Shown piece after piece: positions 24,659 to 52,607 of a DNA stretch of 64,000 nt (the first letter of the stretch is position 1; every line of letters begins with the position of its first letter). The notes beneath the pieces are model-generated. The model saw only the letters and a list, made by a program, of their open reading frames with translations, had not been told where the DNA came from and did no database searches. The position numbers were made by a program, and so were the translations under genes. The stretch is from positions 1,812-65,811 of the forward strand of contig JBIIRM010000002.1 of NCBI GenBank assembly GCA_044341565.1. The letters are read 5' to 3'. Source of the stretch: Minisyncoccia bacterium. Its GTDB lineage: Bacteria; Patescibacteriota; Minisyncoccia; SW-4-49-11.

Positions 24659-24659
24659 T

Positions 24660-38792: not shown

Positions 38793-39668
38793 CTATTGAT
38801 TGAATTCTATCAGTATATGTCGGTCTAAACCTTGTAAATCTGGATATATGGTTATATTAGATGCTACAAAGATTGTCTGTATAATATCTTGTAAAGGACT
38901 GACTTGTTCAGGGTTTATCTCAATTAATATCTTGGGATATACAATAAAACAACTCTTAATATCTTGTATTAACCTGATATAATGCTCTAATCCATTATTA
39001 TTGGAATAAAGCGCTAAATCTGGTTCATATAAAAGGGAGTCGTCTGTATATTGATTTTGATCGAGATAAGGTAAATTTGCAATAATTAAATTAGGTTGTA
39101 ATTCTTGAGGGAATACATCAATAAGATCTCCCTCAAAAAACTCAATAAGACTTTGCTTACCTGTAATTAGTATAGCATTATTTTGTGCAATCTGTAAGGC
39201 TAATGGGGATATATCAGAGGCATATATGTCAGCATTTGGCATTTCAATAGCTAGAGTAACAGCAATACAACCGCTACCAGTACCGATTTCCCAAATAATG
39301 GGGTGGGCAATATTCTCAAATACTATTTTTGTAATATCAATAATAGCTTCAGTTTCTGGGCGAGGTATTAATACCTGTTCATTCACGATAAAGTCTCGTC
39401 CATAAAATTCTTTATGTCCTATAATATAAGCAATTGGCTTATGCTTTAGCCTCTCCTGTACACATTCTTGTATAGCCTCTATTTCCCTAGTCAATATAGT
39501 ATCCTCCTGATGCATTATAGTCTCAAGTTTATTGAGCCCTAATACATATTCAATAATAATATAGGTATCCAATTCAGGAGTAGGGGATAGAGATTGAAGA
39601 GTAGTATTACTCTGTTGTATTATTTCTTTGATAGTCATCGAATGCTTGTAAAATAAGGGTAAAATCAC
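38793..39668 (-). CDS. prmC: Release-factor glutamine N5-methyltransferase
   Basis: SAM motif EIGTGSGCIA and IANLPY (an NPPY-like motif). It overlaps the prfA 3' end. Confidence 0.75.
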   Translation of the reverse strand: MILPLFYKHSMTIKEIIQQSNTTLQSLSPTPELDTYIIIEYVLGLNKLETIMHQEDTILTREIEAIQECVQERLKHKPIAYIIGHKEFYGRDFIVNEQVLIPRPETEAIIDITKIVFENIAHPIIWEIGTGSGCIAVTLAIEMPNADIYASDISPLALQIAQNNAILITGKQSLIEFFEGDLIDVFPQELQPNLIIANLPYLDQNQYTDDSLLYEPDLALYSNNNGLEHYIRLIQDIKSCFIVYPKILIEINPEQVSPLQDIIQTIFVASNITIYPDLQGLDRHILIEFNQ

Positions 39669-40650
39669 CTAATAATATTCCTTCTATATTCGAAAAATTT
39701 TGTTTAATCCTATGATCAGTTATACGGTCTTGGGGGAAATTATAGGTACGAATTTTCTCTGATCTATCTCCAGTCCCAATTTGATTTTTTCGAAAAGAAG
39801 CTTCTTTTTCAGCTTGCTCTTGTTTCATTCTATCTAGAATACGAGTACGTAAAATTTTCATTGCCTTTTCCTTATTTTTGAGCTGAGATTTTTCATCTTG
39901 GCAAGAAACTACTACATTAGTAGGGATATGAGTAATACGAACAGCTGAATCAGTGGTATTAACACTTTGTCCTCCTGGTCCACTGGATCGAAATACATCA
40001 ATTTTTAAATCATTAGGATTAATATCGATGTCAACTTCTTTTGCAATAGGTAATACGGCAACAGTAATAGTAGAAGTATGTACACGGCCAGCTTTTTCTG
40101 TTTTGGGTACTCTTTGCACTCGATGAACTCCACTTTCATATTGTAGATATTTATAGACCTCTGGTCCCCGAGCTTCAATAACAATTTCTTTTATTCCTCC
40201 TACCGAATTCTCGGATAAAGATAATATCTCCGTTTTAGCTCCATTTTTCTGAAGAAAATTAATATAAGCCTTGAATAGCTCTAAAGCAAATAAACCGGCC
40301 TCATCTCCTCCAGCCCCTGCTCGAATTTCTACAATAATTTCATCTGCAAAAGTTTCTTTGGGAGATATAATATCATGCCAAGCTTTTTCTTTTTCAGTTA
40401 ATTCTAATTCCAAACGAGCAATTTCCTCTTCGGCAATTTCTTTCATCTCGGGGTCGCTGAGTAGAACTTTAGCTTCTGCTAATTGAGATTTTATTGTCTC
40501 AATACCTTGTAATAAGGTAATATGACTGGCAAGTTCAGTATGTCTTTTTGAAATAGTAATAAAATCAGAACTACCAAATATCTGAGGTTCAGACATTTGG
40601 GTAGATAATAGTTCATATTCTGCTTGAATATCGGGTAGGGAGGGAATCAT
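39607..40650 (-). CDS. prfA: Peptide chain release factor 1
   Basis: SGPGGQSVNTTDSAVRITHIPT (GGQ motif). Confidence 0.9.
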   Translation of the reverse strand: MIPSLPDIQAEYELLSTQMSEPQIFGSSDFITISKRHTELASHITLLQGIETIKSQLAEAKVLLSDPEMKEIAEEEIARLELELTEKEKAWHDIISPKETFADEIIVEIRAGAGGDEAGLFALELFKAYINFLQKNGAKTEILSLSENSVGGIKEIVIEARGPEVYKYLQYESGVHRVQRVPKTEKAGRVHTSTITVAVLPIAKEVDIDINPNDLKIDVFRSSGPGGQSVNTTDSAVRITHIPTNVVVSCQDEKSQLKNKEKAMKILRTRILDRMKQEQAEKEASFRKNQIGTGDRSEKIRTYNFPQDRITDHRIKQNFSNIEGILLGDFTLILQAFDDYQRNNTTE

Positions 40651-40680
40651 ATTATTGTCCCTAAATATAAGTTGAGGGAG

Positions 40681-40902
40681 TTATTTATTTGAGAGCTTAT
40701 CTTTCTTCTCTAATTTAGCTCGGAATTTCTCAACTCTTCCAGCGGTATCTACCAAAGTTCTTTTTCCTGTATAAAAAGGATGACATTTTGAACATACTTC
40801 AATAGAAATTTTTTCTCTTGTAGCTCCAATTTCAAATTCAGTACTACAAGAAATACATTTAACAGTAGTATGATAATAGGTTGGGTGAATGCCAGATTTC
40901 AT
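40681..40902 (-). CDS. rpmE: 50S ribosomal protein L31
   Basis: MKSGIHPTYYHTTVKCISCSTEFEIGAT with a CxxC pair. Confidence 0.85.
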   Translation of the reverse strand: MKSGIHPTYYHTTVKCISCSTEFEIGATREKISIEVCSKCHPFYTGKRTLVDTAGRVEKFRAKLEKKDKLSNK

Positions 40903-41049
40903 AAATAGATATATTAATCATTACATAATTGTCTATAAGTATAGCATATATATCTCATAAAGTCAATCCATATGAGTGGTATTGTAATACAGTTGTTTTG
41001 TGTATATTTGTATGCTATACTTTTACTATATTATAATACATATCATAAT

Positions 41050-41802
41050 ATGGAGTCCAATCTCACTTTGGGTGATATTATATCCAAAATACAAAGAAAA
41101 TTTAATACGGTTATTATTATAACACTTATTTTTGTATTAGTCGGAGTGGGTATTACTCTTATTATACCAAAACAATATAGGGGAGAATCTCAATTTGTTG
41201 TTATTCAAAAGGCAAATCCAGAAATTGACTCCTATACGGCACAAAGATCAATTGATTCTAAAGTAGATTTATTAGTGAATTTGGTATATACTGATACATT
41301 TTTTGCAAGTGTTACAGCGGATAATGTTGATATCAAGAATGCATTTCCTGAAAATCTGAAGGATAGAAGAACCGCATTTGCTCGTAATATTATTGTTGAA
41401 GCTAAGGGAACTGGTTTTGTCTCAGTATCAACCTATGATGTCTCCTCTGAACTTGCCCTTACTATGAATAAAGTCGTAGTGGATAAATTAATTGAACAGG
41501 CAAAGGTATTATTTGGAGAAACAGGTACTATTCAAGTTGTAAATCAATCATCTCTGTATGATGGAGTTGGGCGGCCAGATATTTTGGTTAATCTCTTGGG
41601 ATCAGCTCTATTAGGATTTTCTATTGCGATTGGATATGTTATTGCAAGGCGAGATCAAAGTATATCATATGATTTTGGTGTTGATAATTTTGTGTCCCCA
41701 CAACTTCCTGATGAATATGAAATAGCTGAAAACCCTATTATTGATTTAACTCCACCCCCATCTATAAGTCCAGATACAGAGTATGACTCAGATAAGTTCT
41801 AA
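41050..41802 (+). CDS. Wzz-like polysaccharide chain-length determinant / co-polymerase
   Basis: The likely start is MESNLTL; the track ORF begins at 40972. An N-terminal transmembrane helix, a periplasmic-type domain and a C-terminal transmembrane helix (LLGFSIAIGYVIARR) give the Wzz topology. Confidence 0.45.
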   Translation: MESNLTLGDIISKIQRKFNTVIIITLIFVLVGVGITLIIPKQYRGESQFVVIQKANPEIDSYTAQRSIDSKVDLLVNLVYTDTFFASVTADNVDIKNAFPENLKDRRTAFARNIIVEAKGTGFVSVSTYDVSSELALTMNKVVVDKLIEQAKVLFGETGTIQVVNQSSLYDGVGRPDILVNLLGSALLGFSIAIGYVIARRDQSISYDFGVDNFVSPQLPDEYEIAENPIIDLTPPPSISPDTEYDSDKF

Positions 41803-43177
41803 TATAATTATTGGACTTGGGGCTATAAGTTTACTTATATGTATTTTACTTAATGCTCCTGGTATCATATTTGCGGCAGTTATTCTTAGTTGGGTATTTG
41901 TATTCATATTATCTATTTCTTTAGAAGTAGGTTTATTTACTTTGATTTTTTTACGGCCAGCTATAGATATTATTAGCCCTTTTACATTACCTGATTTTCC
42001 TATTATTAATTTGGGATCTACTATTGCTATAATGATAATAGTATTGTCATTCATATATATATATAAACACCGAATAGTAGTATATAATTCACATATCCCT
42101 TTAATGTGGAGTTTAGGACTGATTGTACTTGTATATATTATTTTTAGTTTTACAGGGATTTCATTGTTTGTCGGATTACAGGAAACAGTGAGAGTATTGA
42201 GTTTTATTATGCTCTATTTTGTGGGGTGGATATATGTTTCACATCAAAATAAATTAATGAATATAATGAGAGTTATTATATATGGGAGTATTATTCCACT
42301 ATTCGTTGCATATATTGAATATTTTTCTGGCACAGGATTATATACTAATCCTGGGTTTGAAAATCGTATTGCAGGTACATTTGGACATCCTAATGTACTT
42401 GCGTATTATTCTATTATTATCCTTGCATTAATTGGGAGTATATGGCTGAATAAGAATACTACTATTTCAATAGATGAAAAGAGATTATTAGGAAGTATTG
42501 GCTTATTATATATTATTATTCTTTTGGTTACTTTTACACGAGGTGCCTGGTTTGGGCTTATCATGTTAATTGCCTTAATAGGATTAATTAAATATCCACG
42601 TAAAAGTTTAATTATTACATCAATAGGATTAGGATTTATTGCTTTAGTATTATCTATATATCAGATTTTATCTCCCCCTACTGTTTTAGATTTACCGCCA
42701 CTAACTACTTTACCTGTGATTAATAGAGTATCAGGCTTATTTAATGCCGACCCCAGTGATTCGGTGATATGGAGATTAACTATGTGGACAGATATGTATG
42801 AAAAAGCCTGGGAGTCCCCTATAATAGGTTTTGGTACAGGAAGTTCTCAAATTATGGTTGAGCAAACACGAGGTACATTTAGAGGTTCTCTTGAAGTACA
42901 TAATGATTATATCAAAATATTCCTAGAACAAGGATTGATTGGCCTTATGATATATGGAATATTAATACTTAATATTCTAGGAGTATTATATTATCGCTAT
43001 ATACAGGGTAAAAATATCTATATTTTATATTTAGCATCCTTGATGACGGTGATTTATATAGTGAGTTTTTGGGATAATTTACTTCGTGGAACAGTATTAA
43101 TGTGGATATTATTCCTTTTATTGGGGGCAGTATTACATTATCAGAGTTTAGATAATAAATCAGATACGAGTATATGA
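41783..43177 (+). CDS. O-antigen ligase/polymerase family (Wzy_C) membrane protein
   Basis: ~11 transmembrane segments with a large loop containing TRGAWFGLIMLIAL. Confidence 0.6.
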   Translation: MTQISSNIIIGLGAISLLICILLNAPGIIFAAVILSWVFVFILSISLEVGLFTLIFLRPAIDIISPFTLPDFPIINLGSTIAIMIIVLSFIYIYKHRIVVYNSHIPLMWSLGLIVLVYIIFSFTGISLFVGLQETVRVLSFIMLYFVGWIYVSHQNKLMNIMRVIIYGSIIPLFVAYIEYFSGTGLYTNPGFENRIAGTFGHPNVLAYYSIIILALIGSIWLNKNTTISIDEKRLLGSIGLLYIIILLVTFTRGAWFGLIMLIALIGLIKYPRKSLIITSIGLGFIALVLSIYQILSPPTVLDLPPLTTLPVINRVSGLFNADPSDSVIWRLTMWTDMYEKAWESPIIGFGTGSSQIMVEQTRGTFRGSLEVHNDYIKIFLEQGLIGLMIYGILILNILGVLYYRYIQGKNIYILYLASLMTVIYIVSFWDNLLRGTVLMWILFLLLGAVLHYQSLDNKSDTSI

Positions 43178-44238
43178 AAATTTTAGTATTAGGTCGACAA
43201 CATATAGCTAAATCAGAGGATATTATTAAAGGTCTTCAGGATTTGGGACATACTGTACATTATCTCCTTTTCCCTTCCCTCCAATATCCTCAAAATTATT
43301 ATACTACTCATACAGGAAATATATCGACTCTATCATATACATCCAAGATAGCATATTATTGGGGACATTATCATAGTATACGGAAATATATGACATCTCA
43401 TCTTGATACGGATTATGATTATATTTTAGCTATAGATTGGTTTGAGGGATATATTGCTCTTTCACTCCGAGATTATTTTAAGGATATCCCTATAATATAT
43501 TATGCCTATGATTATTATTTTTATTCTAATAGACTTTCATCACGCTATATTATTAACAAAATAGAGGCCTCAGTATATAAGCGGGCAAATATGGTCTGGG
43601 CTTTGAGTTCACAAATTATTATAGAACATGAAAAAAAACATATTAATAAATCTTTGGTATTGACTATACCATTAGGGATTCATACTCAAAAAATTGCTCC
43701 CTATAAACCCGATTCAAGACAAATACTCTTTATGGGTAATTTTAAAGAAGGGCATAATTTACGATTATTGGTAAATGTTTTTGCAAAATTATCTCCAGAC
43801 TATCATCTACATCTTATAGGTAAGGGTAATTTATATCAAGAAATTGAGAAAATAATTCAACCTGCAAGCTCTAATATTACTTTATATGGATTTCAAGATG
43901 AACAGCAAATACAAGAATTAGTAGTGAAGCATCATATTGGTTTTGGAATAGCTTTATATGAGAATACATTAGAAATATCTTGTGCTGATCCAGGGAAAAT
44001 TAAAGATTATCTTTCATTGGGGCTCCCAATTATTACTACTCCATATCCTAGTATAAGTAAGGATATACAAGAATATAATTTAGGATTAGTAATACAAGAT
44101 AATGAAGAAAGTTTATATACAACATTAATTCATATAGATGAAAATAATATGAATAAGTTTGCAAAAAATATTATAAGATACACTCAACAACATAGTTATG
44201 CTAAAATATTAGCTAAAGCTTTATCTCAGAGTAAATGA
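43174..44238 (+). CDS. Family-1 (GT4-like) glycosyltransferase
   Basis: C-terminal GT-B Rossmann half and an E..GH..-like motif region. Part of the polysaccharide cluster. Confidence 0.55.
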   Translation: MKILVLGRQHIAKSEDIIKGLQDLGHTVHYLLFPSLQYPQNYYTTHTGNISTLSYTSKIAYYWGHYHSIRKYMTSHLDTDYDYILAIDWFEGYIALSLRDYFKDIPIIYYAYDYYFYSNRLSSRYIINKIEASVYKRANMVWALSSQIIIEHEKKHINKSLVLTIPLGIHTQKIAPYKPDSRQILFMGNFKEGHNLRLLVNVFAKLSPDYHLHLIGKGNLYQEIEKIIQPASSNITLYGFQDEQQIQELVVKHHIGFGIALYENTLEISCADPGKIKDYLSLGLPIITTPYPSISKDIQEYNLGLVIQDNEESLYTTLIHIDENNMNKFAKNIIRYTQQHSYAKILAKALSQSK

Positions 44239-44300
44239 TATCTATTGATAAAATGTCATATATATGATAGGGTAGAGATGTCCATCTTTGGTTATTTACC

Positions 44301-44696
44301 ATGAAAAAGCTCTTTCTCCCTTTTGTAACAGCAATTTCAGTTCTATTCCCAATGGCAGCAACAGCTCAATGGTGGGGTGAATCTTTTGAAAGTATTGAAT
44401 ATAATGGGGTGATAATTCGCTCCGATATTCGTCCACGCACTATTATTTGTCCTATTGTGGAATCACAAGGATTACCTTGTGATGGATATCAAGGATTCAA
44501 TGCATCCACCAGGACTCATATTTTTAGAAATAATGGGAATTGGAATAATAATAGAAACTGGAATAATCAGTGGCAAAACCCAGGATGGAATAATAATCAA
44601 CATTGGAGACAGCCTAATTCAGGATGGAATAATAATGGAGGTTGCCTCTTCAAAAAATGGACGCGAGATGGTGGCTTTGCAATCGGGAATTGCTGA
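44301..44696 (+). CDS. Small secreted Asn/Trp-rich repeat protein
   Basis: Signal peptide MKKLFLPFVTAISVLFPMAATAQ. NWNNNRNWNNQWQNPGWNNN repeats. Several Cys. Host-like AT-rich composition. Confidence 0.5.
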   Translation: MKKLFLPFVTAISVLFPMAATAQWWGESFESIEYNGVIIRSDIRPRTIICPIVESQGLPCDGYQGFNASTRTHIFRNNGNWNNNRNWNNQWQNPGWNNNQHWRQPNSGWNNNGGCLFKKWTRDGGFAIGNC

Positions 44697-44716
44697 TACA
44701 TTATTTTCCAATCTCA

Positions 44717-44753
44717 AGCCGGTAGCAATAGCTGCCGGTATTTTTTTGTTTTT
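44717..44753 (+). terminator. Intrinsic terminator
   Basis: agccggtagcaatagctgccggt hairpin followed by tttttttgttttt. Confidence 0.55.
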
Positions 44754-44758
44754 ATATC

Positions 44759-44787
44759 TTGACAAATAAGATATAATATGCTATAGT
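44759..44787 (+). promoter_or_regulatory. Sigma-70-type promoter TTGACA-N17-TATAGT with a TGc extended -10 region
   Basis: ttgacaaataagatataatatgctatagt. Confidence 0.5.
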
Positions 44788-44812
44788 CACTAAGTCGTTT
44801 CGTGGATAAACC

Positions 44813-45124
44813 ATGAAAACTCTTACCAAGTTCATCGCCGGCGCTCTGCTGGCAGGCACCACACTTCTGACCGTGGCTCCCGCCACGGCTCAGTCCCTCA
44901 GCGGCAGGGTCGCCGTCGGACCCATCGGGTCCACCACGAGGGCCTGGACCTCGGTCTCCGAAGCTCAGTCCCTGTGTGCCCGCAATGGGTGCTGGGTGAC
45001 CGATGGGGTGGAGGTGTCACCCGGTAATTGGGTACCGAACACTCTGTTCCCGGGGGCGAAATCCCTCAGGGATTCAGCTGGGAACGGCCTGCTCGAGATT
45101 CCTCGAGCGACATCTCCTCGCTGA
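44813..45124 (+). CDS. GC-rich island gene 1: small secreted protein (103 aa)
   Basis: Signal peptide MKTLTKFIAGALLAGTTLLTVAPATAQ. Mature region carries CARNGCW. Coding GC is roughly 60% by eye with high GC3, against a low-GC genome. The start codon is preceded by gtGGATAAACCatg. Confidence 0.6.
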   Translation: MKTLTKFIAGALLAGTTLLTVAPATAQSLSGRVAVGPIGSTTRAWTSVSEAQSLCARNGCWVTDGVEVSPGNWVPNTLFPGAKSLRDSAGNGLLEIPRATSPR

Positions 45125-45150
45125 GGTGTCAGTTCAGTTTAGTTCAATAA

Positions 45151-45176
45151 GCCTCTGCAATGCAGGGGCCTTTTTT
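45151..45176 (+). terminator. GC-rich intrinsic terminator
   Basis: gcctctgcaatgcaggggcc hairpin followed by tttttt. Confidence 0.6.
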
Positions 45177-45199
45177 ATATATTGAAATGTTGTCAATAC

Positions 45200-45228
45200 T
45201 TGACTTTTTGGTTTAAATATGCTATTAT
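45200..45228 (+). promoter_or_regulatory. Sigma-70-type promoter TTGACT-N17-TATTAT with a TGc extended -10 region
   Basis: ttgactttttggtttaaatatgctattat. Confidence 0.5.
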
Positions 45229-45255
45229 AGATCCGTCTTTCATGGGTTTATCCTA

Positions 45256-46254
45256 ATGAAAAAGTTCATTCCCATCTTGCTTGGCTCTGTTTTACTGGCT
45301 TCGGCTGGAAAGGCGGAGACATTGCCTTTGAGGCTCCAGATCAGCACCCCAGATTCCAATCGGGCGGTGAGGGTGATCATAAGTCCCAGTCAAGCGAAAG
45401 CCTCGGCAGGGCTGGTAACAGCTCGTCCTGGTTCCAATCCCTCGGACTGGGCACCTCAGTACAATAGACTGATTAACCAAAAGGCCCTCGGGTCTCGCGG
45501 TCAATCGGGTGCTGGGCTCACAGCAGGTACGCCTCGGCGTTTCTGTCTGGTGCCTTTGTACCAGGAGGTGAAAAATCTCTCTGCGCTCCCTTGTGGAGCT
45601 TATGGGGAGAGTATCAACTTCCGGTCCAATGGACCCCTTGCCTTCAGCCTTATCAGTGTCAAATCTGATGGTGGATGGCAATGGCTCGACAATGGGCCTA
45701 AGGGGGCTGGTACTGGTGGTCTTACTCTTGTAAGTTCACCAGGCTGGGAAGTTGCTGGGTGGGGACATACCTCAAAAGGGTATGTCCCCACCAGCAGGGG
45801 AGTATTCTTTGGCCCCATCTTCACGGGTGGGGACTTGGCTACCTCGAGGATTTTATCCTCGACTCCCGCCTCGGCGGTGAGGGAGCCTATCTGGCGTCTG
45901 CCAGATTCTGGGCTCAGGTTCCCGGCAGTGATCACGGTCAGCAATGATCGTATCACTCTCTCCACCACCCCCATTCCCGGGGCGCAATATTTCTTCCTCC
46001 CTCGGGAGGGCGGTATGTCGGTAGGACGCGAATTCATCGCAATTCAGCCAGGAGTAGCATTCCAAGCTGGAGTTCAGCTGAACTCCTCCGCTACCGATGC
46101 TGGCACCTTTGGTGCCAAGCTTCCCGATGGCAAGATTGCCTGGATTCAATGGGGATCTCGTCCTGATGGACGTGACACCCGGGTCAAGGTGATTAATCAA
46201 GGTGGTCAGCCCTGGGTTCAGCAAGGTTGGAGCTTGGTCCGCGTTCATCGCTGA
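45256..46254 (+). CDS. GC-rich island gene 2: secreted protein (332 aa), no recognised domain
   Basis: Signal peptide MKKFIPILLGSVLLASAGKAE. Gly/Trp/Ser-rich. Roughly 55% GC by eye. Upstream is the inverted motif catgGGTTTATCC. The antisense ORFs in the track across this gene are GC-composition artefacts. Confidence 0.65.
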   Translation: MKKFIPILLGSVLLASAGKAETLPLRLQISTPDSNRAVRVIISPSQAKASAGLVTARPGSNPSDWAPQYNRLINQKALGSRGQSGAGLTAGTPRRFCLVPLYQEVKNLSALPCGAYGESINFRSNGPLAFSLISVKSDGGWQWLDNGPKGAGTGGLTLVSSPGWEVAGWGHTSKGYVPTSRGVFFGPIFTGGDLATSRILSSTPASAVREPIWRLPDSGLRFPAVITVSNDRITLSTTPIPGAQYFFLPREGGMSVGREFIAIQPGVAFQAGVQLNSSATDAGTFGAKLPDGKIAWIQWGSRPDGRDTRVKVINQGGQPWVQQGWSLVRVHR

Positions 46255-46261
46255 TCAGACT

Positions 46262-46288
46262 CCTCATATCAGCCCTCACAATTTGTGG
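46262..46288 (+). terminator. GC-rich intrinsic terminator
   Basis: gccctcacaatttgtgggggc hairpin followed by tttttt. Confidence 0.6.
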
Positions 46289-46327
46289 GGGCTTTTTTAT
46301 TTCTCTCCAAAAACACTATAATAGATG

Positions 46328-46356
46328 TTGTTAGCTATTGACAAAATCGTGTTTTT
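46328..46356 (+). promoter_or_regulatory. Sigma-70-type promoter TTGACA-N17-TAGTAT with a TGc extended -10 region
   Basis: ttgacaaaatcgtgtttttatgctagtat. Confidence 0.5.
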
Positions 46357-46394
46357 ATGCTAGTATGCGAGAGTTCTTTACCAGGAGTTTTACG

Positions 46395-47528
46395 ATGAAA
46401 AATCGTAACATCTTGGGGATGTTTGCAATCGTTCTTCCACTACTTGCCCCTATGGGTGTCAAGGCGGAGAATTTGCTCTCATCACCTCAATCGAATATCC
46501 AGGCAGAAATGCCTCGGAGACTCTCAACTCGAGAGCAAGCAGCTGAGCTTCGCGCCATGCGTGAAGCTGCCGAGGCTCGTAATGCTGGAAGTGTTCCGCA
46601 AATGTCACAGACTCCACCTGGACCACCACCGGTTTTGCCGGTAACTCAGGTTGTGACACAACAACCTGTCAATCCTGTGGTTGCAGGACCTGTTGTTACC
46701 CCTTTTCAAAAGGGCGGTGGAGAATCCTCCCTGTTCGGTGGTAATAACACCAATATCAGGGGGGAGGCAGAGTACAGTAGCACTCCCAGCCAGATCAATT
46801 CCAAGGCTGGAGTCACGCTGGCTCCCAAGGGGAAACCTTTCCTGATGCAAGTTACCGGCTATCAAAGCTCGGGAACTTGCCCAGCAGGTCCGGGAGGTAC
46901 TTGTTCCTATGATTCCAGTAAGCTGGATATCTATGGGGCTCTGAGAGGCTGGTCTTCCACTACCGAGTGGAATGCTGGTCCCTTTGTCCGTTTCCAGCAG
47001 AATAATGCTAATGGGACTTGGAAAAGCCCCGATGGTCTTTATTCCGGTGAATGGAAGTCGGATAAGCCTCAGACTGATGTCGGTATCCGAGCCCGGATTC
47101 GTCATCGCCTGGACCCCAAGTCTTCCGCCAATCCTTGGATTGGTGCAGGTGGCGAATACGATTTCGCCAATGGAGGCTATGACGCCTTCGGCGAAGGCGG
47201 TATTCGCCCCGGCAACTCCAAGAATCCCTGGAATCTGTATGTCCAGGGGGGTGTGAATACTGACGGAGGATATTTTTATCCCGAGGTCACCACACCTAAT
47301 CTGGTGGGGGATGCCAATTCGAAGCTGCAGGTCCAGCTTCAGGCAAAGGGAGTTCTTTATGGCCTCGGCCGTGATAACTCCACTAGTCGAGTTGAACTCG
47401 GGGCCCCCATCACCCTGAATCTCAGCCGCAATACGGCTATTCAGGTGGTGCCAGCCTATGTGCTGGGACTCGACTCCAATACCCGCTCAGGGTTTGGGGG
47501 CACAGTAAAGCTCCGCTTCGGCTTCTGA
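46395..47528 (+). CDS. GC-rich island gene 3: secreted protein with an outer-membrane-beta-barrel-like C-terminus (porin-like)
   Basis: The likely start is MKNRNILGMFAIVLPLLAPMGVKAE (signal peptide); the track ORF starts at 46338. It has a short Ala/Glu/Arg helical segment and a Pro-rich linker. The Gly/aromatic-rich body ends ...GGTVKLRFGF, a terminal Phe with alternating hydrophobics typical of OMP beta-signals. Roughly 58% GC by eye. Confidence 0.6.
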   Translation: MKNRNILGMFAIVLPLLAPMGVKAENLLSSPQSNIQAEMPRRLSTREQAAELRAMREAAEARNAGSVPQMSQTPPGPPPVLPVTQVVTQQPVNPVVAGPVVTPFQKGGGESSLFGGNNTNIRGEAEYSSTPSQINSKAGVTLAPKGKPFLMQVTGYQSSGTCPAGPGGTCSYDSSKLDIYGALRGWSSTTEWNAGPFVRFQQNNANGTWKSPDGLYSGEWKSDKPQTDVGIRARIRHRLDPKSSANPWIGAGGEYDFANGGYDAFGEGGIRPGNSKNPWNLYVQGGVNTDGGYFYPEVTTPNLVGDANSKLQVQLQAKGVLYGLGRDNSTSRVELGAPITLNLSRNTAIQVVPAYVLGLDSNTRSGFGGTVKLRFGF

Positions 47529-47687
47529 AGTAAAACCAAAAATGATAGCAACTAACCCCTCACGGGGAGCAGTCGCCTTGACCATCTCTGGTTTTATACC
47601 CCTATATCTCCAGCTGCTTGCAGTTGGGGATTTTCATTTTGTAAGAATATAGGCTATAATAGATTTTATATCTGCTCTTTTAGATTC

Positions 47688-47879
47688 ATGAGACGCAACC
47701 CAGTCTTACTGATTATATCTATTTTGGTAGCTGTAATCATTCAGCATAGTATTGCCGAAGAAGATATTATGTCAGAGAATATTCCTCATCAGTCTCAGGT
47801 ACTGCTTAGTATTTTGTCTCTCCTCTCAGGTTTGATTGGAGCTGATATATTTATGACAGGTATTCGACTCATTTGGTAA
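47688..47879 (+). CDS. Possible small two-helix membrane protein (63 aa)
   Basis: MRRNPVLLIISILVAVIIQHSIAEED...LLSILSLLSGLIGADIF. It is preceded by a ggctataat -10-like box and followed by a weak hairpin plus T-rich run. Confidence 0.3.
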   Translation: MRRNPVLLIISILVAVIIQHSIAEEDIMSENIPHQSQVLLSILSLLSGLIGADIFMTGIRLIW

Positions 47880-47946
47880 TGCTTCAACTTTAGGTTCACT
47901 CTCAATTCGAGGGTGGGCTTTTCTTTATTTCAGTTGTTGAAAACTT

Positions 47947-47975
47947 TTGACATTTGAGTCAAAATATGCTATAAT
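47947..47975 (+). promoter_or_regulatory. Sigma-70-type promoter TTGACA-N17-TATAAT with a TGc extended -10 region
   Basis: ttgacatttgagtcaaaatatgctataat, upstream of the glycosyltransferase at 48007. Confidence 0.5.
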
Positions 47976-48006
47976 TTATATTAATTAGATTACTATTAGT
48001 ATTTTC

Positions 48007-49188
48007 ATGAAAATTGCTTTTATAGGTCAAAAAGGTATTCCTGCCTCAGCTGGGGGTGGTGTGGAGAACTATGTTGATAATATTGCAGTGAGACTTGCTC
48101 GACGGAACCATGATATTATTGTTTATACACGTAAATCCTATGCTCCTGAAGGGAATTATAAAGGGGTACAGGTAATTGAAACCCCTTCTATTGCCACCAA
48201 AAGTTTGGATGCTATTACTCATACATTTACTTCTATTTGGAATAGTTTTTTTATCCCAGATTTGGATGTACTTCATATCAATTCAGTGGGCCCCGCCTTA
48301 TTAACTCCATTTGCTCGCCTCGGATTTGCTATCAAATATCTATTTGGACATAGATATACCAAGGTGGTATTTACATTTCATAGTGCTGATTGGTATCATG
48401 GAAAATGGAATCTTTTTGCTAAGTCAATGTTAAAATTAGGGGCTTGGACAGGATGTCATTTTGCTGATGAAGTAGTAACAGTTTCTAAGAGTTTACGCTA
48501 TTTTATATCTCGAGAATTTGATATTAAGGCTACTTATATACCAAATGGTACCGTGTTTAATCATATTAGTTCTGATTCAAAATTAGCCAAATTTGGTCTC
48601 AAAAAACAAGGCTATATTGTATTTATTGCAAGACTAGTTAAACATAAAAATGCTCATATTTTGATACAGGCGTATCAGCAAATGGCTCATAAATATGGGA
48701 AAAAGCTTGTTATTGTGGGAGGACCTTCTTATACCAGAGAATATGAACAATATCTTCATGATTTAGCAGATGGAGATAAAAATATTATATTTACCGGTCA
48801 TCAATTAGGCAGAACATTAAAACAATTATTTGCTAATGCAGCAATATATGTTCTTCCATCATCTTCAGAGGGATTATCTATTTCTCTTTTGGAGGCAGGA
48901 AGTTATGGAATTCCTGTTATTGTATCCGATATTCGCGAAAATCTTGAAATTGTGGGGGATCTTGGGCATATTGCAAAGGTGAATAATATTGCTTCTCTCA
49001 AACATCAATTAGAGCATGTATTGGGGGATTATCGAGGAGCTTTGGAACTTGCGGACATATTACAAGAGGAAATACGGTATCATTATTCTTGGAATCATAT
49101 TATAAAAGCTCTTGAAAATGTATATCAGAGAGACTCTCGTCTATATAGGGGTGCTGGTATTCAGGTTACGGCAGCTTTGAAATATTAA
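48007..49188 (+). CDS. Family-1 (GT4) glycosyltransferase
   Basis: GT-B fold. The C-terminal half has EGLSISLLEAGSYGIPVIVSD (an E-x7-E-like motif). Confidence 0.7.
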   Translation: MKIAFIGQKGIPASAGGGVENYVDNIAVRLARRNHDIIVYTRKSYAPEGNYKGVQVIETPSIATKSLDAITHTFTSIWNSFFIPDLDVLHINSVGPALLTPFARLGFAIKYLFGHRYTKVVFTFHSADWYHGKWNLFAKSMLKLGAWTGCHFADEVVTVSKSLRYFISREFDIKATYIPNGTVFNHISSDSKLAKFGLKKQGYIVFIARLVKHKNAHILIQAYQQMAHKYGKKLVIVGGPSYTREYEQYLHDLADGDKNIIFTGHQLGRTLKQLFANAAIYVLPSSSEGLSISLLEAGSYGIPVIVSDIRENLEIVGDLGHIAKVNNIASLKHQLEHVLGDYRGALELADILQEEIRYHYSWNHIIKALENVYQRDSRLYRGAGIQVTAALKY

Positions 49189-49193
49189 TAGAT

Positions 49194-50480
49194 ATGAAAA
49201 AAGTCTCTCCCAAAAAGAGAATTTTGACTATATTAGGTATTATACTATTGATTATTATTAGTATAAGTCTTATTATTTGGGGAATTATTTGGTCTCAATA
49301 TAGACAGGAAATTAATTTGGCTCAAGCTATACAAAAACAGGGAGATGTCACCTATTTAGTATTATTCCAGAACACCTTAGAATTAAGACCAACAGGGGGA
49401 TTTGTAGGTAATTTTGCAGAAGTTACTTTGAGTAAAGGAAAAGTGAAAAAGTATACTATTTATAATACGAATGCCTTTGATTATGGAAAGCCTGGTATTA
49501 ATGCTCCTGAGCCTATAAAAATTATGCTAGGAGTCGATACATTACAAATGAGAGATGGAAATTGGTCTCCAGATTTTCCTACTACAGCAAAACAAATGAT
49601 TGATTTATATAAATTGGAGGGGGGAAGTCAAAATATAAATGGTATTATTGCAGTAAATGCTGCTGTTCTCCCTGAAATATTAAAAATTATTGGGCCAGTG
49701 AATGTAGAGGGAATAGATGGAGAATTAAATGCCGATAATGTATTATTATCTGTACAATATGAACTTAATTTTGGATTTATTGATAAGGGGATAAGTCGTG
49801 CTGACCGTAAAGAGCCTATTAAAAATTTAGCAGTTGAAGTAGAGAAGAGAATTCGCAAAGCCTCTCCTCAAACATTATATAAAATTGGGAATATGCTTAT
49901 AGAGCAGGCTAATCAAAAGCAACTATTATTATGGAGCTCAGATCAAAAAGTACAAGATAAAGTTGAGACTTTGAATTGGGATGGGGCTATTGAGAATAAT
50001 GGGGAGGGGGATTATTTTATGTTAGTAGATGCTAATTTAGGTTCTCTCAAAACAGATTATTATATGAAGCGAGATATTAGTAAAACAGTTAATACTTGTG
50101 GGGACAAATTATGCTCCACAATTACCATACGATATACTAATACTGCTCAGACTGCCTCACCTCTCAATAATGATTATAAGTCATATAGTAGAATATTATT
50201 ACCACAAAATGCTTTTATTAATACTATTACTGGTATTGAAAAAGACAAAATTGACTATAATAGCGAATATAATAAAAAAGTAGCAGGATTTCAAATAGAT
50301 ATTCCTTTTAATAGTACTAAGGATATTTTCATTGATTATACTATTCCCAAAACTCAACAATATAGTTTGCAAATTCAAAAACAGCCAGGTATTGCAGGAT
50401 TTGGATTTAATTTAGATTATAAGCCAAAGTCAAAACAAGTATCTGAATATATTAATTCTGATTGGAATTGGAAAGAATAA
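49194..50480 (+). CDS. DUF4012-family membrane-anchored protein
   Basis: An N-terminal transmembrane helix, then LVLFQNTLELRPTGGFVGNFAEV, which is the conserved motif of DUF4012. Confidence 0.5.
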   Translation: MKKVSPKKRILTILGIILLIIISISLIIWGIIWSQYRQEINLAQAIQKQGDVTYLVLFQNTLELRPTGGFVGNFAEVTLSKGKVKKYTIYNTNAFDYGKPGINAPEPIKIMLGVDTLQMRDGNWSPDFPTTAKQMIDLYKLEGGSQNINGIIAVNAAVLPEILKIIGPVNVEGIDGELNADNVLLSVQYELNFGFIDKGISRADRKEPIKNLAVEVEKRIRKASPQTLYKIGNMLIEQANQKQLLLWSSDQKVQDKVETLNWDGAIENNGEGDYFMLVDANLGSLKTDYYMKRDISKTVNTCGDKLCSTITIRYTNTAQTASPLNNDYKSYSRILLPQNAFINTITGIEKDKIDYNSEYNKKVAGFQIDIPFNSTKDIFIDYTIPKTQQYSLQIQKQPGIAGFGFNLDYKPKSKQVSEYINSDWNWKE

Positions 50481-52607
50481 TTATTCAAAATGTACGGTAT
50501 CTTCAAAATGCGATAGACGAGATTTTAATTCTGGATACATATTAAGAGTAGTATCTTGATTCAGGATTTCTTGTGATATATTACGAGTTTGTACAATAAT
50601 CTCTTTATTGAGTAATGCCTCCATACTAATATCTGATATTCCACTTTGATTAGATCCAATAAATTGACCTGGACCTCTAATAGCTAAATCTTTTTCCGCG
50701 AGCTCAAATCCATTATTGGCTTTTTCAATAGCTTTTAATCTTTGATTCATGGACACTTCTTGCTCACCCGTTTCAAATAGAAAACAAAAGGATTGATATT
50801 CTCCTCGGCCCACTCTTCCTCGGAATTGATGTAATTGAGCGAGTCCAAAGCGCTCAGCCCCTTCTATCACCATAATACTGGCATTCGGGATATCAATACC
50901 AACTTCTATTACTGAGGTGGCAACAAGTATATCAAATGTCCGATTTTTGAAATCTTGAATAATTGTATCTTTTTCGGCAGTTTTCATTTTCCCATGCATC
51001 ATATTAATTCTCAGATCAGGGAATATATTTTGAGATAAGTCAATAAAAGTTTCTTCTACGGATTTGATATCAGATTCTTCATCAGCTTCAATCTTGGGGC
51101 ATACCACAAAGGCTTGTCTACCGGATTGTATATGTTTACGTATAAAGGTATAGGCTTCTGATCTTTTGGATGGAGGTACTAATTTAGTTTTTATGAGTTT
51201 TCTTCCAGCGGGATATTCATCTAATAGAGATATATCTAAATCCCCATATATACTAAGAGCTAAAGTTCTTGGTATTGGGGTTGCTGTCATACTTAAGAGA
51301 TGAGAAATTGTCTCAGAGCTTTTATCCTTAGCTTTACTAATCATAGTTTGTAATTCTGCTCTTTGCTTTACTCCGAATCGATGTTGCTCATCTACGATAA
51401 CAAGAGCAAGATCTTTATATTGTAATTGATCAGTAATAACACTATGAGTACCAATAACAATATCAATATTTCCCCTTGCAATTTTACGTAATAATTCTTT
51501 TTTAGGAATAGTAGTCCAAGACCCAAGTTCAATATCAGTAGATATACGAGATTCTTTAGAGGTAATCAAGGCGATAATTGGGGGTGAGGTTATATTCTGT
51601 GTTAATTTGGTGATTCCTTCAAAATGTTGAGTTGCAAGTATTTCAGTAGGGGCCATCATTACCGATTGAGCTGTATTAAAATAGGAATTAAGCATTGCTA
51701 TTGTTGCGACAATGGTTTTGCCAGTACCAACATCTCCCTCTAATAATCTATTCATAGGGGATGGTTTGGCAATATCACCCAGGATTTCTTGTATAGATTT
51801 TTGCTGAGCCTTGGTTAGCTCAAAGGGTAGCTTACTAATAAATTCTTGAATTCTGTCTGTTTGAGTCATTAATGCAGGAGCATATTTAGATTGAAAGAGC
51901 AGTTTTTGTTTGGCAATATATAATTGCATAATAAAAGCTTCTTCGAATATTAGTCTTTGTTTAGCTTGATGAATATTATCGGTACTGCGAGGATAATGTA
52001 AATATTGAATAGCGGTATTAATATCAGGGATATGAGCTTTTTGTAAAACCCATTCAGGTAAAGTCTCAGGTAATAGTCCAAATTGCTTAATAGCAAGATC
52101 AATACGATATCTTAACATTTTTGAGGTTATACCAAAGGTTTCTGGGTAAATAGGTACTAATCGATGAGAATGTAAGAGGATTTTTTGTGGTAATATTCTC
52201 TCAAAACTAATATTGCTAAGAGGGGATTTAGTATTAGGTTTTATAATAGCAGATAGGGCATATTGTGAACCTATTTGAAGAGACTCAAATAATAATTTTT
52301 GATTAAAAAGGGTAATAGTATATTGATCAGTCTCATCTTGTATAGTAATTTCCCCCAAAACAAGATTACGACCTCTGAGGCGAGTCGATTTCTTATGAAT
52401 AATAGTTATTTCAAATACAGCAGGAGTTCCTGGGATAATAGTATTAATATTATTTAAGGTTTGAAAATGAGTATAATTAATAAATTTTTTGGGTGGATAT
52501 AAAAGGAGTTGTGCAAGAGTATGAATTCCTAATTTATGAAAACTGCTAATAAGCCTAGGAGTAGGTTTTGGCTTTAATTCTTCAATAGGGGTATAGAGAA
52601 CATTCAT
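50481..52607 (-). CDS. recG: ATP-dependent DNA helicase RecG
   Basis: Wedge domain plus helicase motifs GDVGTGKT (Walker A) and DEQHRFGV (DEQH box). 708 aa. Confidence 0.9.
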   Translation of the reverse strand: MNVLYTPIEELKPKPTPRLISSFHKLGIHTLAQLLLYPPKKFINYTHFQTLNNINTIIPGTPAVFEITIIHKKSTRLRGRNLVLGEITIQDETDQYTITLFNQKLLFESLQIGSQYALSAIIKPNTKSPLSNISFERILPQKILLHSHRLVPIYPETFGITSKMLRYRIDLAIKQFGLLPETLPEWVLQKAHIPDINTAIQYLHYPRSTDNIHQAKQRLIFEEAFIMQLYIAKQKLLFQSKYAPALMTQTDRIQEFISKLPFELTKAQQKSIQEILGDIAKPSPMNRLLEGDVGTGKTIVATIAMLNSYFNTAQSVMMAPTEILATQHFEGITKLTQNITSPPIIALITSKESRISTDIELGSWTTIPKKELLRKIARGNIDIVIGTHSVITDQLQYKDLALVIVDEQHRFGVKQRAELQTMISKAKDKSSETISHLLSMTATPIPRTLALSIYGDLDISLLDEYPAGRKLIKTKLVPPSKRSEAYTFIRKHIQSGRQAFVVCPKIEADEESDIKSVEETFIDLSQNIFPDLRINMMHGKMKTAEKDTIIQDFKNRTFDILVATSVIEVGIDIPNASIMVIEGAERFGLAQLHQFRGRVGRGEYQSFCFLFETGEQEVSMNQRLKAIEKANNGFELAEKDLAIRGPGQFIGSNQSGISDISMEALLNKEIIVQTRNISQEILNQDTTLNMYPELKSRLSHFEDTVHFE

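Follow-up and report, generated by a model that had tools for sequence, protein, structure and literature searches.

Tandem exported-protein genes in an AT-rich Saccharibacteria lineage: a probable recombining locus for variable envelope or host-contact proteins

A 64-kb stretch of a Minisyncoccia bacterium genome (contig JBIIRM010000002.1; the whole 64,000 nucleotides analyzed here are called the window) carries, within positions 44245-47920, five consecutive plus-strand modules of promoter, open reading frame (ORF) and terminator, and three of the five ORFs are GC-rich in a genome that is otherwise AT-rich. What kind of locus is organized in this way, and what keeps the composition of its genes so far from that of their neighbors? 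The reading that we favor, with a probability of roughly 0.6, is that of a hypervariable locus, subject to recombination, whose products are envelope or host-contact proteins and in which conserved promoter-terminator slots hold replaceable GC-rich coding sequences (CDSs) within an AT-rich Saccharibacteria lineage. The size and persistence of the codon anomaly, the slot-wise swapping of CDSs and a predicted barrel are added here to a preliminary description of the array that had been made from the DNA alone. The five ORFs are as follows, with signal peptide cleavage sites marked by an arrow.

44301 to 44696, plus strand: ORF1, a 131-residue exported protein rich in Asn and Trp, signal peptide ending AATA↓QWW, four cysteines, GC 0.39
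44813 to 45124, plus strand: ORF2, a 103-residue exported protein, signal peptide ending APATA↓QSL, two cysteines, GC 0.63
45256 to 46254, plus strand: ORF3, a 332-residue exported, all-beta protein rich in Gly, Ser, Pro and Ala, signal peptide ending AGKA↓ETLPL, GC 0.56
46395 to 47528, plus strand: ORF4, a 377-residue exported protein, signal peptide ending GVKA↓ENL, GC 0.54
47688 to 47879, plus strand: ORF5, a 63-residue peptide with two hydrophobic helices, GC 0.37

The coordinates and the plus strand given to these five ORFs by the preliminary description were borne out. For ORF4, the start is taken as the ATG at 46395, with AGGAG ahead of it, and not as the listed TTG at 46338, because the latter overlaps the -35 hexamer of ORF4's own promoter. 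Intergenic gaps within the array measure 116-159 bp, compared with -4 to +30 bp at most same-strand junctions elsewhere in the window, which agrees with the earlier statement that the layout is distinct from that of the surrounding DNA. The view of the array as a run of self-contained modules for exported proteins is likewise upheld, as Sec-type signal peptides ending in AxA-like sites open ORF1 to ORF4 (ATA↓Q, ATA↓Q, GKA↓E and VKA↓E), while ORF5 encodes a membrane peptide of two helices. Together with the neighboring polysaccharide genes, these signal peptides suggest a possible surface location of the products.

The first part of the question, namely whether each gene is a transcription unit of its own, is addressed by the regulatory elements listed below in order of position.

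44245 to 44273, plus strand: P1, a weak promoter-like site for ORF1, TTGATA-17-TAGGGT with a TG extension
44718 to 44739, plus strand: T1, terminator, stem of 9 bp with 6 G-C pairs followed by ATTTTTTT, folding free energy (dG) -16.9, z -4.5
44759 to 44787, plus strand: P2, promoter of ORF2, TTGACA-17-TATAGT with TGn
45151 to 45169, plus strand: T2, terminator; relatives have hairpins of different sequence at the same place
45200 to 45228, plus strand: P3, promoter of ORF3, TTGACT-17-TATTAT with TGn
46271 to 46293, plus strand: T3, terminator, 10 bp with 6 G-C pairs and TTTTTT, z -4.1
46338 to 46366, plus strand: P4, promoter of the barrel slot (ORF4), TTGACA-17-TAGTAT with TGn
47606 to 47631, plus strand: T4, terminator, 11 bp with 5 G-C pairs, kept in the related loci L002 and L010 with compensatory changes
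47631 to 47660, plus strand: P5, promoter-like site of ORF5, TTTTCA-18-TATAAT
47892 to 47920, plus strand: T5, terminator, 12 bp with 5 G-C pairs, z -3.8

Sigma-70-type hexamers at 16-18 nt spacing occur here in excess of chance. The strict motif TTGAC-N14-16-TGnTAnnnT is found six times in the 64 kb, where 0.69 occurrences are expected, and not one of 100 shuffles attains that count. Of these copies, four are local (44759, 45200 and 46338 ahead of ORF2 to ORF4, and 47947 ahead of the downstream GT4 gene) and form a single 41-nt repeat family in a repeat search. The other two precede an S16-like ribosomal-protein gene (22448) and the L31 gene, which is why we regard the strict motif as the strong-promoter consensus of the organism itself. 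In the promoters of the five ORFs and of the downstream GT4 gene, six in all, 26-32 nt separate the -10 element from the ATG. The statement that every gene has its own promoter thus holds in full for ORF2 to ORF4, which carry the strict motif, whereas ORF1 has a weak variant and the site ahead of ORF5 departs from the motif.

Terminators had previously been described for the first four genes; those four stand, and ORF5 has one as well. On computational folding, a G+C-rich hairpin (8-12 bp, 5-6 G-C pairs) followed by a T-run is present 14-79 nt past the stop codon of all five ORFs, with fold z values of -2.4 to -4.5. Three of the five flanks fold clearly better than shuffled sequence (z -3.8 to -4.5, 0/200 shuffles as good), and those of ORF2 and ORF4 are weaker (z -2.4 and -2.5, with 5/200 and 2/200 shuffles as good). 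In the roughly 62 kb scanned outside the island, no terminator-like site has more than three G-C pairs, and the counts of such sites (16, 8 and 4, against shuffle means of 9.3, 7.8 and 5.9) give no clear excess.

These elements recur in related loci, which were fetched for comparison and are designated by L-numbers. In 11 loci (the window and ten related ones), the strict promoter motif accompanies 36 of 42 cassette genes, starting ~33-91 nt (mostly 53-73) ahead of the gene start, and 32 of the 42 have a clear hairpin-T terminator whose stem sequence often differs while the pairing is kept. The P1 element is identical in L002, and variants of it stand ahead of the ORF1 homologues in L007, L010 and L018. 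T1 is near-identical in L002, L003, L007 and L010, and the T3 hairpin is kept with a different stem sequence in L002, L003 and L015. We propose that a slot consists of a native strong sigma-70-type promoter with an extended -10, a 5′ untranslated region (UTR) of ~20-25 nt, one Sec-exported CDS and an intrinsic terminator; from this design it would follow that each product comes from its own transcript.

What the slots contain differs among relatives. The number and content of modules, whose variation the preliminary description had proposed to check, do vary, from one to five modules drawn from about ten protein families. Alternative sets occupy the same site, upstream of a conserved GT4 gene, in the window and in L002, L003, L006, L007, L010 and L014-L019, with these contents:

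The window and L006: ORF1, ORF2, ORF3, a type-1 barrel gene and ORF5
L002: ORF1, ORF2, ORF3, a type-2 barrel gene (~30% identity to type 1) and ORF5
L003, L015 and L017: sets without ORF5
L019: ORF1, an unrelated 122-residue protein (H122) and a type-1 barrel gene
L014: four other exported proteins, one with APVSAPAPEP repeats
L007 and L010: A269 (269/277 residues), ORF1, S122/S132 (122/132 residues) and a type-2 barrel gene, with or without ORF5
L018: a single module, ORF1, and no GC-rich DNA

Slot by slot, the promoters, terminators and spacers are conserved even where the CDS family differs. The P2 slot promoter precedes ORF2 in L002 and L017, and in L007 and L010 it stands before the unrelated S122/S132 genes; P4 (TTGACAAAATnGTGTTTTTATGCTAGTnT) is near-identical before type-1 and type-2 barrel genes in L002, L007, L010 and L017. 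Most spacers of the window share 67-81% identity with those of L010 or L002 (62% for the spacer between ORF5 and GT4) against a shuffled maximum of 0.54, and the small-protein and barrel CDSs between those spacers show background similarity of 0.48-0.52. Signal-peptide types a and b occur with barrel types 1 and 2 in all four combinations. The histories of the flanks and of the island are also incongruent: between the window and L003, synonymous divergence (dS) is 2.1-4.7 in the flanks, which are saturated, and 0.9-1.3 in the island, whereas between the window and L002 the order is reversed, with a flank dS of 0.6 and an island dS of 0.8-1.1. L017 and the window share 78% identity in the flanking GT4 protein and 87.5% in ORF4. 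Hybrid cassettes produced by recombination are what this combination of incongruence, shuffled types and conserved spacers around unrelated CDSs describes.

As an observation on the wider region, positions 39200-52200 of the window alternate between blocks of 100% and of 88-90% identity to L006 over 13 kb, housekeeping genes included, so homologous recombination is frequent in the population. In the mechanism that we favor, the AT-rich regulatory scaffolds conserved between lineages would act as homology arms for recombination that replaces or reshuffles CDSs, and recombination of this kind would explain the differences in cassette number and identity between strains.

In its logic, the nearest analogue of such a locus would be the hypervariable S-layer cassette of Clostridioides difficile. 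That cassette is exchanged by homologous recombination independently of the genomic backbone, and a glycosylation cluster adjoins it. It comprises slpA-secA2-cwp, is known in 14 cassette types including hybrid cassettes, and its product is a phage receptor (PMC8809339). Both loci are short blocks of surface genes at a fixed chromosomal site with many alternative, partly hybrid versions, and the phage-receptor role of the C. difficile products offers a rationale for diversity. The two differ in that the proteins here are unrelated to SlpA/Cwp and lack CWB2 and SLH domains, the genes are individually equipped with a promoter and a terminator, whole families are swapped in slots, and codon usage is foreign.

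Tandem, same-orientation, individually exchangeable single-gene units of atypical composition are also a property of integron arrays, and an integron-like or otherwise mobile cassette array, or else an assembly chimera, was considered as an origin of the locus. We regard this as highly improbable. The cassettes lie on one strand and their composition is foreign, as in integrons, but every cassette carries a promoter and a terminator of its own, the inverted repeats correspond to the short T-run hairpins of the terminators and not to attC sites, exchange apparently proceeds by spacer homology, and no integrase is evident in the neighboring genes nor was any IntI, attI or attC found. A chimera is excluded because identical or syntenic sequence is present in JGI, ENA, Logan and NCBI assemblies from different samples. 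An independent assembly (L001, Logan) holds 13.6 kb of the same DNA at 100% identity, and the same proteins occur at 96-100% amino acid identity on a contig of a metagenome-assembled genome (MAG) deposited as uncultured Candidatus Saccharibacteria bacterium.

The second part of the question concerns composition. The window is 30-37% GC overall, and the array stretch reaches 51-53% per kb. Third-position GC (GC3) along the array and in the next gene is 0.29, 0.70, 0.55, 0.51, 0.33 and 0.21, so that ORF2, ORF3 and ORF4 stand far above the 28 other genes of the window (0.194 ± 0.017, maximum 0.233), with ORF1 and ORF5 slightly raised. In 150-nt windows, GC peaks at 0.69 in ORF2, 0.60 in ORF3 and 0.58 in ORF4, and the module spacers lie at ~0.30-0.36, against 56-64% GC inside the CDSs of the three GC-rich genes. 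Codon choice follows the same pattern, the island and the background differing in the use of TTA for Leu (0.03 versus 0.48), ATA for Ile (0.03 versus 0.31), AGA for Arg (0.06 versus 0.39), ATC for Ile (0.59 versus 0.07) and TTC for Phe (0.74 versus 0.16), and in A at fourfold degenerate sites (0.16 versus 0.38). The anomaly is not a general expression-linked bias, because the ribosomal-protein genes L25 and S16 have a GC3 of 0.16-0.18 and S16 shares the promoter type. Nor is it general to exported proteins, because large putative surface proteins lie in regions of ordinary AT-rich composition: a GLUG and Laminin_G_3 protein (992 residues; 308-3286, minus strand), a DUF5122 beta-propeller (717 residues; 6864-9017) and a DUF11 protein (634 residues; 27184-29088).

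The GC-rich state also appears persistent. Across six orthologues, GC3 stays at 0.53-0.55 in ORF3, 0.45-0.54 in ORF4 and 0.63-0.73 in ORF2. In the six ORF3 sequences, 84% of the fourfold degenerate sites with a conserved amino acid vary, yet the majority-rule consensus, taken as ancestor in a procedure that at such saturation is biased towards 0.5, has a GC content at fourfold sites (GC4) of 0.58 against 0.50-0.61 at the tips, and deviations per site are balanced, at 0.206 strong-to-weak (S>W) and 0.200 weak-to-strong (W>S). Over the three genes, consensus GC4 values of 0.58, 0.58 and 0.73 roughly equal those of the tips, ORF4 behaving like ORF3 and ORF2 lying at ~0.7, and the same procedure gives 0.15-0.18 for three flanking genes. 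The contrast between island and flanks holds despite the bias, and nothing indicates GC decay.

Composition of this kind would be expected of a foreign island: the three GC-rich genes would have come from a GC-rich donor, probably a diderm and possibly the host bacterium, would still carry its composition, and would have gained native promoters later. The codon usage is wholly unlike that of the genome, an outer-membrane-protein (OMP)-type barrel is a diderm feature, L018 has no GC-rich genes, and Saccharibacteria live attached to other bacteria (10.64898/2026.03.03.709456). We nevertheless consider an import of this kind unlikely. In word-indexed searches of 5.8 billion proteins, and in an exhaustive profile search of 1.84 billion representatives with ORF3, no homologue of the GC-rich genes was found outside the lineage, and no donor lineage was identified. 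Every homologue with fetched context lies at the syntenic site in a related AT-rich genome, as a GC-rich block between flanks of 30-35% GC, and the site is the same in lineages whose flanks are synonymously saturated. Signs of mobility are lacking: neither IMG/VR viral contigs, searched with the ORF3 and ORF4 families, nor plasmids, searched with ORF4, yielded relatives, the neighboring genes include no evident integrase or transposase, the repeat search gave no flanking direct repeats, and the closest tRNA genes (35773 and 52619) are ~5-8 kb off. The GC-rich stretches begin and stop with the CDSs, the native spacers show slot-wise conservation, and GC4 has not decayed in spite of the variability of the fourfold sites. 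Stationary GC, CDS-sharp boundaries, native spacers and the absence of an outside homologue together argue against a recent, un-ameliorated import and favor a gene-specific force; an ancient import followed by active maintenance is possible.

That force could be GC-biased gene conversion at a recombination hot spot, with GC-richness as a by-product and the locus otherwise as in the favored reading. Recombination and mosaicism are clear here, and the slight elevation of GC3 in ORF1 and ORF5 would fit such a process, as would the GC-richness of the vls antigenic-variation locus in the AT-rich Borrelia genome. The composition switches within ~100 bp at CDS ends, however, which is sharper than typical conversion tracts, and the flanking genes, which also recombine (mosaic 39-52 kb), stay at a GC3 of ~0.2. 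The effects reported for biased conversion in bacteria are far below the 30-50 points seen here. Because composition flips over so short a distance and recombining flanks stay AT-rich, selection on the CDS or mRNA is ranked above biased conversion, which we judge to be quite unlikely. In the favored reading, the GC-rich codon usage would be at a steady state of its own, and it is this apparent stationarity that suggests a gene-specific force, most likely selection on the coding sequence or the mRNA. In a more tentative elaboration of this reading, described below with the barrel, candidate selective reasons would be mRNA stability (the window has two RNase J genes), avoidance of spurious AT-rich signals, and translation pacing for export. 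The RNase J paralogues, of 588 and 591 residues, are adjacent to each other at 22892-26435, and a link between mRNA decay and the GC-rich CDSs is possible.

For composition, a close analogue is the vls locus of Borrelia, which is GC-rich in an AT-rich genome and whose composition is conserved across species while its sequence diverges. Segmental gene conversion there carries sequence from silent cassettes into one expression site in a single cell line, GC skew is strong, and the product is a lipoprotein. In contrast, the window has no silent copies, skew in the GC-rich stretch is not sustained (-0.16 to +0.15), all cassettes have promoters, the signals are of the Sec and not the lipoprotein type, and variation is seen only between lineages. 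From both the S-layer cassette and vls, the present locus differs in its families swapped in fixed slots, its monocistronic units, its gene-to-gene codon shifts and its OMP-type barrel.

The third part of the question is what the cassettes encode. For the five proteins, Pfam, NCBIfam, PHROGs and PADLOC gave no match; the cassette proteins of the relatives have none in Pfam, PHROGs or PADLOC, and family profiles of ORF3 and ORF4 retrieved no PDB sequence. The ratio of nonsynonymous to synonymous divergence (dN/dS) between orthologues of ORF2, ORF3 and ORF4 is 0.14-0.25, in the range of purifying selection. As a non-coding RNA, the GC-rich DNA has no Rfam match above threshold, and with dN/dS below 0.25 it is read as coding.

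ORF4 is the one product whose fold is modeled with good confidence. By eye, its signal peptide MKNRNILGMFAIVLPLLAPMGVKA↓EN shows a charged n-region, a hydrophobic core and a VKA cleavage motif; there follow a conserved helix (LRAMREAAEARN), a Pro-rich linker (PGPPPV) and a C-terminal barrel ending in KLRFGF. An AlphaFold2 model based on a 36-sequence alignment has a predicted local distance difference test score (pLDDT) of 74-93 per 10-residue block, mostly 82-93, for residues 121-377. By DSSP the model contains 14-16 long antiparallel strands, with a predicted barrel at ~118-377, consistent with a closed, even-stranded barrel, and hydrophobic and polar residues alternate in many strands. When the model was compared with the PDB using Foldseek, 50 of the 50 matches listed were outer-membrane barrels (FadL, FapF, autotransporter beta-domains, OmpG, BamA and TamA), with E values down to 4e-7. 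A C-terminal beta-signal is present: 31 of 36 family members end in Phe (LRFGF, RIGF or GFRF), and the full zeta-x-G-x-x-aromatic-x-aromatic pattern is matched in part. Pfam gives sub-threshold matches to Autotransporter (E 7.5e-4, 3/36) and OMP_b-brl_2 (0.055, 1/36). ORF4 is accordingly described as resembling an OMP barrel in its predicted fold. It shares with diderm OMP barrels the fold, the signal peptide, the dyad-alternating strands, the C-terminal Phe and the weak Pfam signals, and differs from them in having no family-level sequence membership (no Pfam or NCBIfam match for ORF4, matches of other members far below cut-offs and no match to a PDB sequence), and in a helix and Pro-rich stalk that are shared with a non-barrel cassette.

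The ORF4 family comprises 40 homologue clusters, of type 1 (55-100% identity) and type 2 (27-34%), and the helix with a PGPPPV-type linker is common to type-1 barrels, type-2 barrels and that one non-barrel cassette, of L014. A homology between ORF4 and an OMP_b-brl-like protein of the distant locus L021 was rejected (hhalign probability 1.4%). The barrel gene is followed by a conserved segment of its 3′ UTR.

47529 to 47600, plus strand: 3′-UTR segment after the barrel gene, near-identical in the window, L002 and L010 despite different barrel types

In these three loci there are ~3 differences in the ~70 nt after the stop codon, with a dS of 0.6 in the neighboring GT4 gene, and a second sequence version is found in loci without ORF5. 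A structured-RNA reading of the segment was rejected, as neither an Rfam match nor covariation support was obtained; a recombination anchor and an mRNA element are possible roles.

In the mechanism proposed here, the barrel on its helix and Pro-rich stalk would form a pore or anchor in the outermost cell layer or at the host contact, and the diversity of the locus would reflect pressure from hosts, phages or both, as at other variable surface loci. A more specific version places the OMP-type barrel in an outer layer, either in the outer membrane or mycomembrane of the host at the attachment site, as a nutrient-tapping pore, or in an unrecognized layer of the epibiont itself, with exchangeable partner proteins and with GC-rich codons kept by selection and not as a relic of transfer; we put this forward tentatively, as a rather doubtful elaboration.

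The presence of FapF among the structural matches raises the possibility of amyloid export of the Fap or curli kind, with ORF4 as a FapF-like channel and the Asn-, Gln- and Trp-rich ORF1 as the fiber subunit. FapF chains make up 17 of the 50 Foldseek matches listed (best E 1.8e-6; template-modeling (TM) score, target-normalized, 0.49-0.52), the order of helix, disordered linker and barrel in FapF is like that of ORF4, and ORF1 both contains a low-complexity Asn/Trp/Gln-rich tract and is the one constant partner. The matches are generic to OMP barrels, however, with FadL and autotransporters scoring as well; no sequence similarity to Fap or Csg families and no equivalents of FapA, B, D, E or CsgE, F, G were found; L018 keeps ORF1 without a barrel gene; and the ORF1 repeat tract is short and poorly conserved. 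Such a system is very unlikely here.

ORF1 has six homologue clusters and is the only module that all related loci share, even L018 with no GC-rich genes. Its conserved core, ESIEYNG.IIR..IRPRT.IC, is followed by the low-complexity tract. Within it, at 44529-44650, imperfect TGGAATAATAAT (W-N-N-N) repeats vary in length and sequence between relatives. ORF2 has orthologues in L002, L003, L006, L015 and L017, with a dN/dS of 0.20-0.21; homology between ORF2 and H122 was considered and rejected. ORF3 has 21 homologue clusters, all full length and 74-100% identical, and a dN/dS of 0.14-0.25. The exhaustive profile search recovered its own family, a distant relative (P0062) and one marginal match, and its AlphaFold2 model is poor (pLDDT 44.6) and unusable for a fold search. 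The distant relative, at locus L013, lies on a fragment of ~45% GC, in a promoter-gene-terminator module after the same kind of GT4 gene. At 45758-45792, ORF3 contains a perfect 14-nt inverted repeat (GGTGGGGACATACC ... GGTATGTCCCCACC; -32.5 kcal/mol over 42 nt), and in L002, L003, L015 and L017 the hairpin at the same codons is weaker (-13 to -19 kcal/mol) with partly different stem bases. ORF5 has divergent homologues in L002, L006 and L010 and is absent in L003, L007, L015, L017 and L019. Among the replacement cassettes, S122/S132 is homologous to the N-terminal domain of A269.

The preliminary description had compared the array with bacteriocin loci, and on such a reading ORF5 would be an immunity protein for small secreted antimicrobials. 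In its favor are the small size of the exported products, the monocistronic units, a content that varies between strains and a terminal small membrane peptide. This comparison does not withstand the analysis, and a bacteriocin or toxin-immunity array is now decidedly improbable. The leaders are of the Sec type and not double-glycine leaders; no C39/ABC exporter, modification enzyme, regulator or recognizable immunity gene is found nearby; many loci that retain the remaining genes lack ORF5; and the products, of 103-377 residues (mature masses 8-37 kDa), include a large OMP-type barrel and have no PADLOC or PHROG match. A role as effectors, which the same description had also mentioned, or as host-contact factors is plausible.

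Several observations weigh against the locus being a set of independently transcribed, exchangeable cassettes for surface proteins under gene-specific selection. Four of the five products have no fold assignment, and their function is suggested by export signals, context and variability. The TM-scores of the ORF4 matches are moderate (0.31-0.59), and it is not obvious where an OMP-type barrel would reside in a member of an apparently outer-membrane-less phylum, since Patescibacteria have been proposed to have no outer membrane (PMC12102498). Among the scanned proteins of the window, no beta-barrel assembly machinery (BAM) or Omp85 component was seen. Recombination is frequent along the whole region and not in the island alone. 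For composition, the steady-state estimate draws on six sequences, and control genes treated in the same way have an implied equilibrium of 0.32-0.37 against ~0.22 observed; polarized differences between the window and L006 number 29 S>W and 19 W>S, which may be recombination imports and are not a clean mutation spectrum, because these genomes differ by recombined blocks. Finally, independent transcription is indicated by motifs and their conservation, and for ORF1 read-through from the upstream operon is possible, because P1 is weak and no terminator lies between the upstream GT4 gene (ending at 44238) and ORF1, a spacer that folds no better than shuffles (z -0.71).

Other bacteria of the Candidate Phyla Radiation (CPR), like Saccharibacteria, live attached to host bacteria by means of an interface whose molecules are largely unknown, and the favored reading would supply concrete candidates that are exported, strain-variable and without known relatives. 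The set is small, probably strongly expressed, and placed inside a surface-polysaccharide cluster. A predicted membrane barrel is unexpected in a cell without an outer membrane, and we found no literature report of a barrel or porin, or of GC-rich surface genes, in Saccharibacteria or Patescibacteria. Adjacent CDSs lie 30-50 GC3 points apart, seemingly stably, while synonymous sites turn over, and if selection is the cause, this would be among the sharpest bacterial cases of gene-specific selection on synonymous composition. The slot design also suggests a way in which minimal genomes may diversify their surface without mobile-element machinery.

The surroundings of the array are consistent with an envelope-related locus, in the order Wzz-Wzy-GT4, array, GT4-DUF4012.

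40972 to 44238, plus strand: upstream Wzz-like, Wzy_C (O-antigen-ligase-like) and GT4 genes by Pfam, an overlapping operon, AT-rich (GC ~0.30)
47947 to 50480, plus strand: downstream GT4 and DUF4012 genes of normal composition, beginning with a promoter that matches the consensus at 12 of 12 positions (47947-47975)

The downstream GT4 protein is 77-92% identical in all close relatives and marks the conserved right-hand border. The polysaccharide part is also variable: Wzy_C and the upstream GT4 (41783-44238) have diverged strongly, to 42-75% amino acid identity between relatives compared with 75-94% for RecG and the downstream GT4, and L007, L010 and L018 carry, in place of the upstream GT4, another GT4 gene in the opposite orientation. 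O-antigen and capsule loci of the wzx/wzy type share this neighborhood (Wzz, Wzy_C and GT4) and a variation consistent with recombination at conserved borders; they differ in that the variable part here encodes exported proteins and not sugar enzymes, in monocistronic units and not in one long operon. Farther neighbors include RecG, TrmD, PilM, a type IV pilus ATPase and the two RNase J genes.

Loci reached through distant GT4 homologues (41-46% identity) were found at L021:998-4091, L030:187-1697, L035:1211-4778 and L040:2905-3984. Upstream of the GT4 gene they have GC-rich signal-peptide genes (52-58% GC, GC3 0.55-0.72) in surroundings of ~38-46% GC, with a sub-threshold OMP_b-brl match in one and bacterial Ig-like surface domains in others. 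GC-rich surface-protein genes beside this GT4 may be a wider pattern.

ORF2 is omitted by the JGI gene calls on the contig of the window, and antisense ORFs are called in its place at L002 9578-9862 and L003 9575-9865. In the window these antisense ORFs are broken, and the plus-strand frame is taken as the real gene because it is conserved, has a signal peptide and lies between a promoter and a terminator. Long antisense ORFs, of 129-166 residues, also overlie ORF3 and ORF4. With ORF2 missed or placed on the wrong strand and long antisense ORFs present, GC-rich cassettes in AT-rich genomes evidently confuse gene finders, and such cassettes are probably under-annotated in CPR MAGs.

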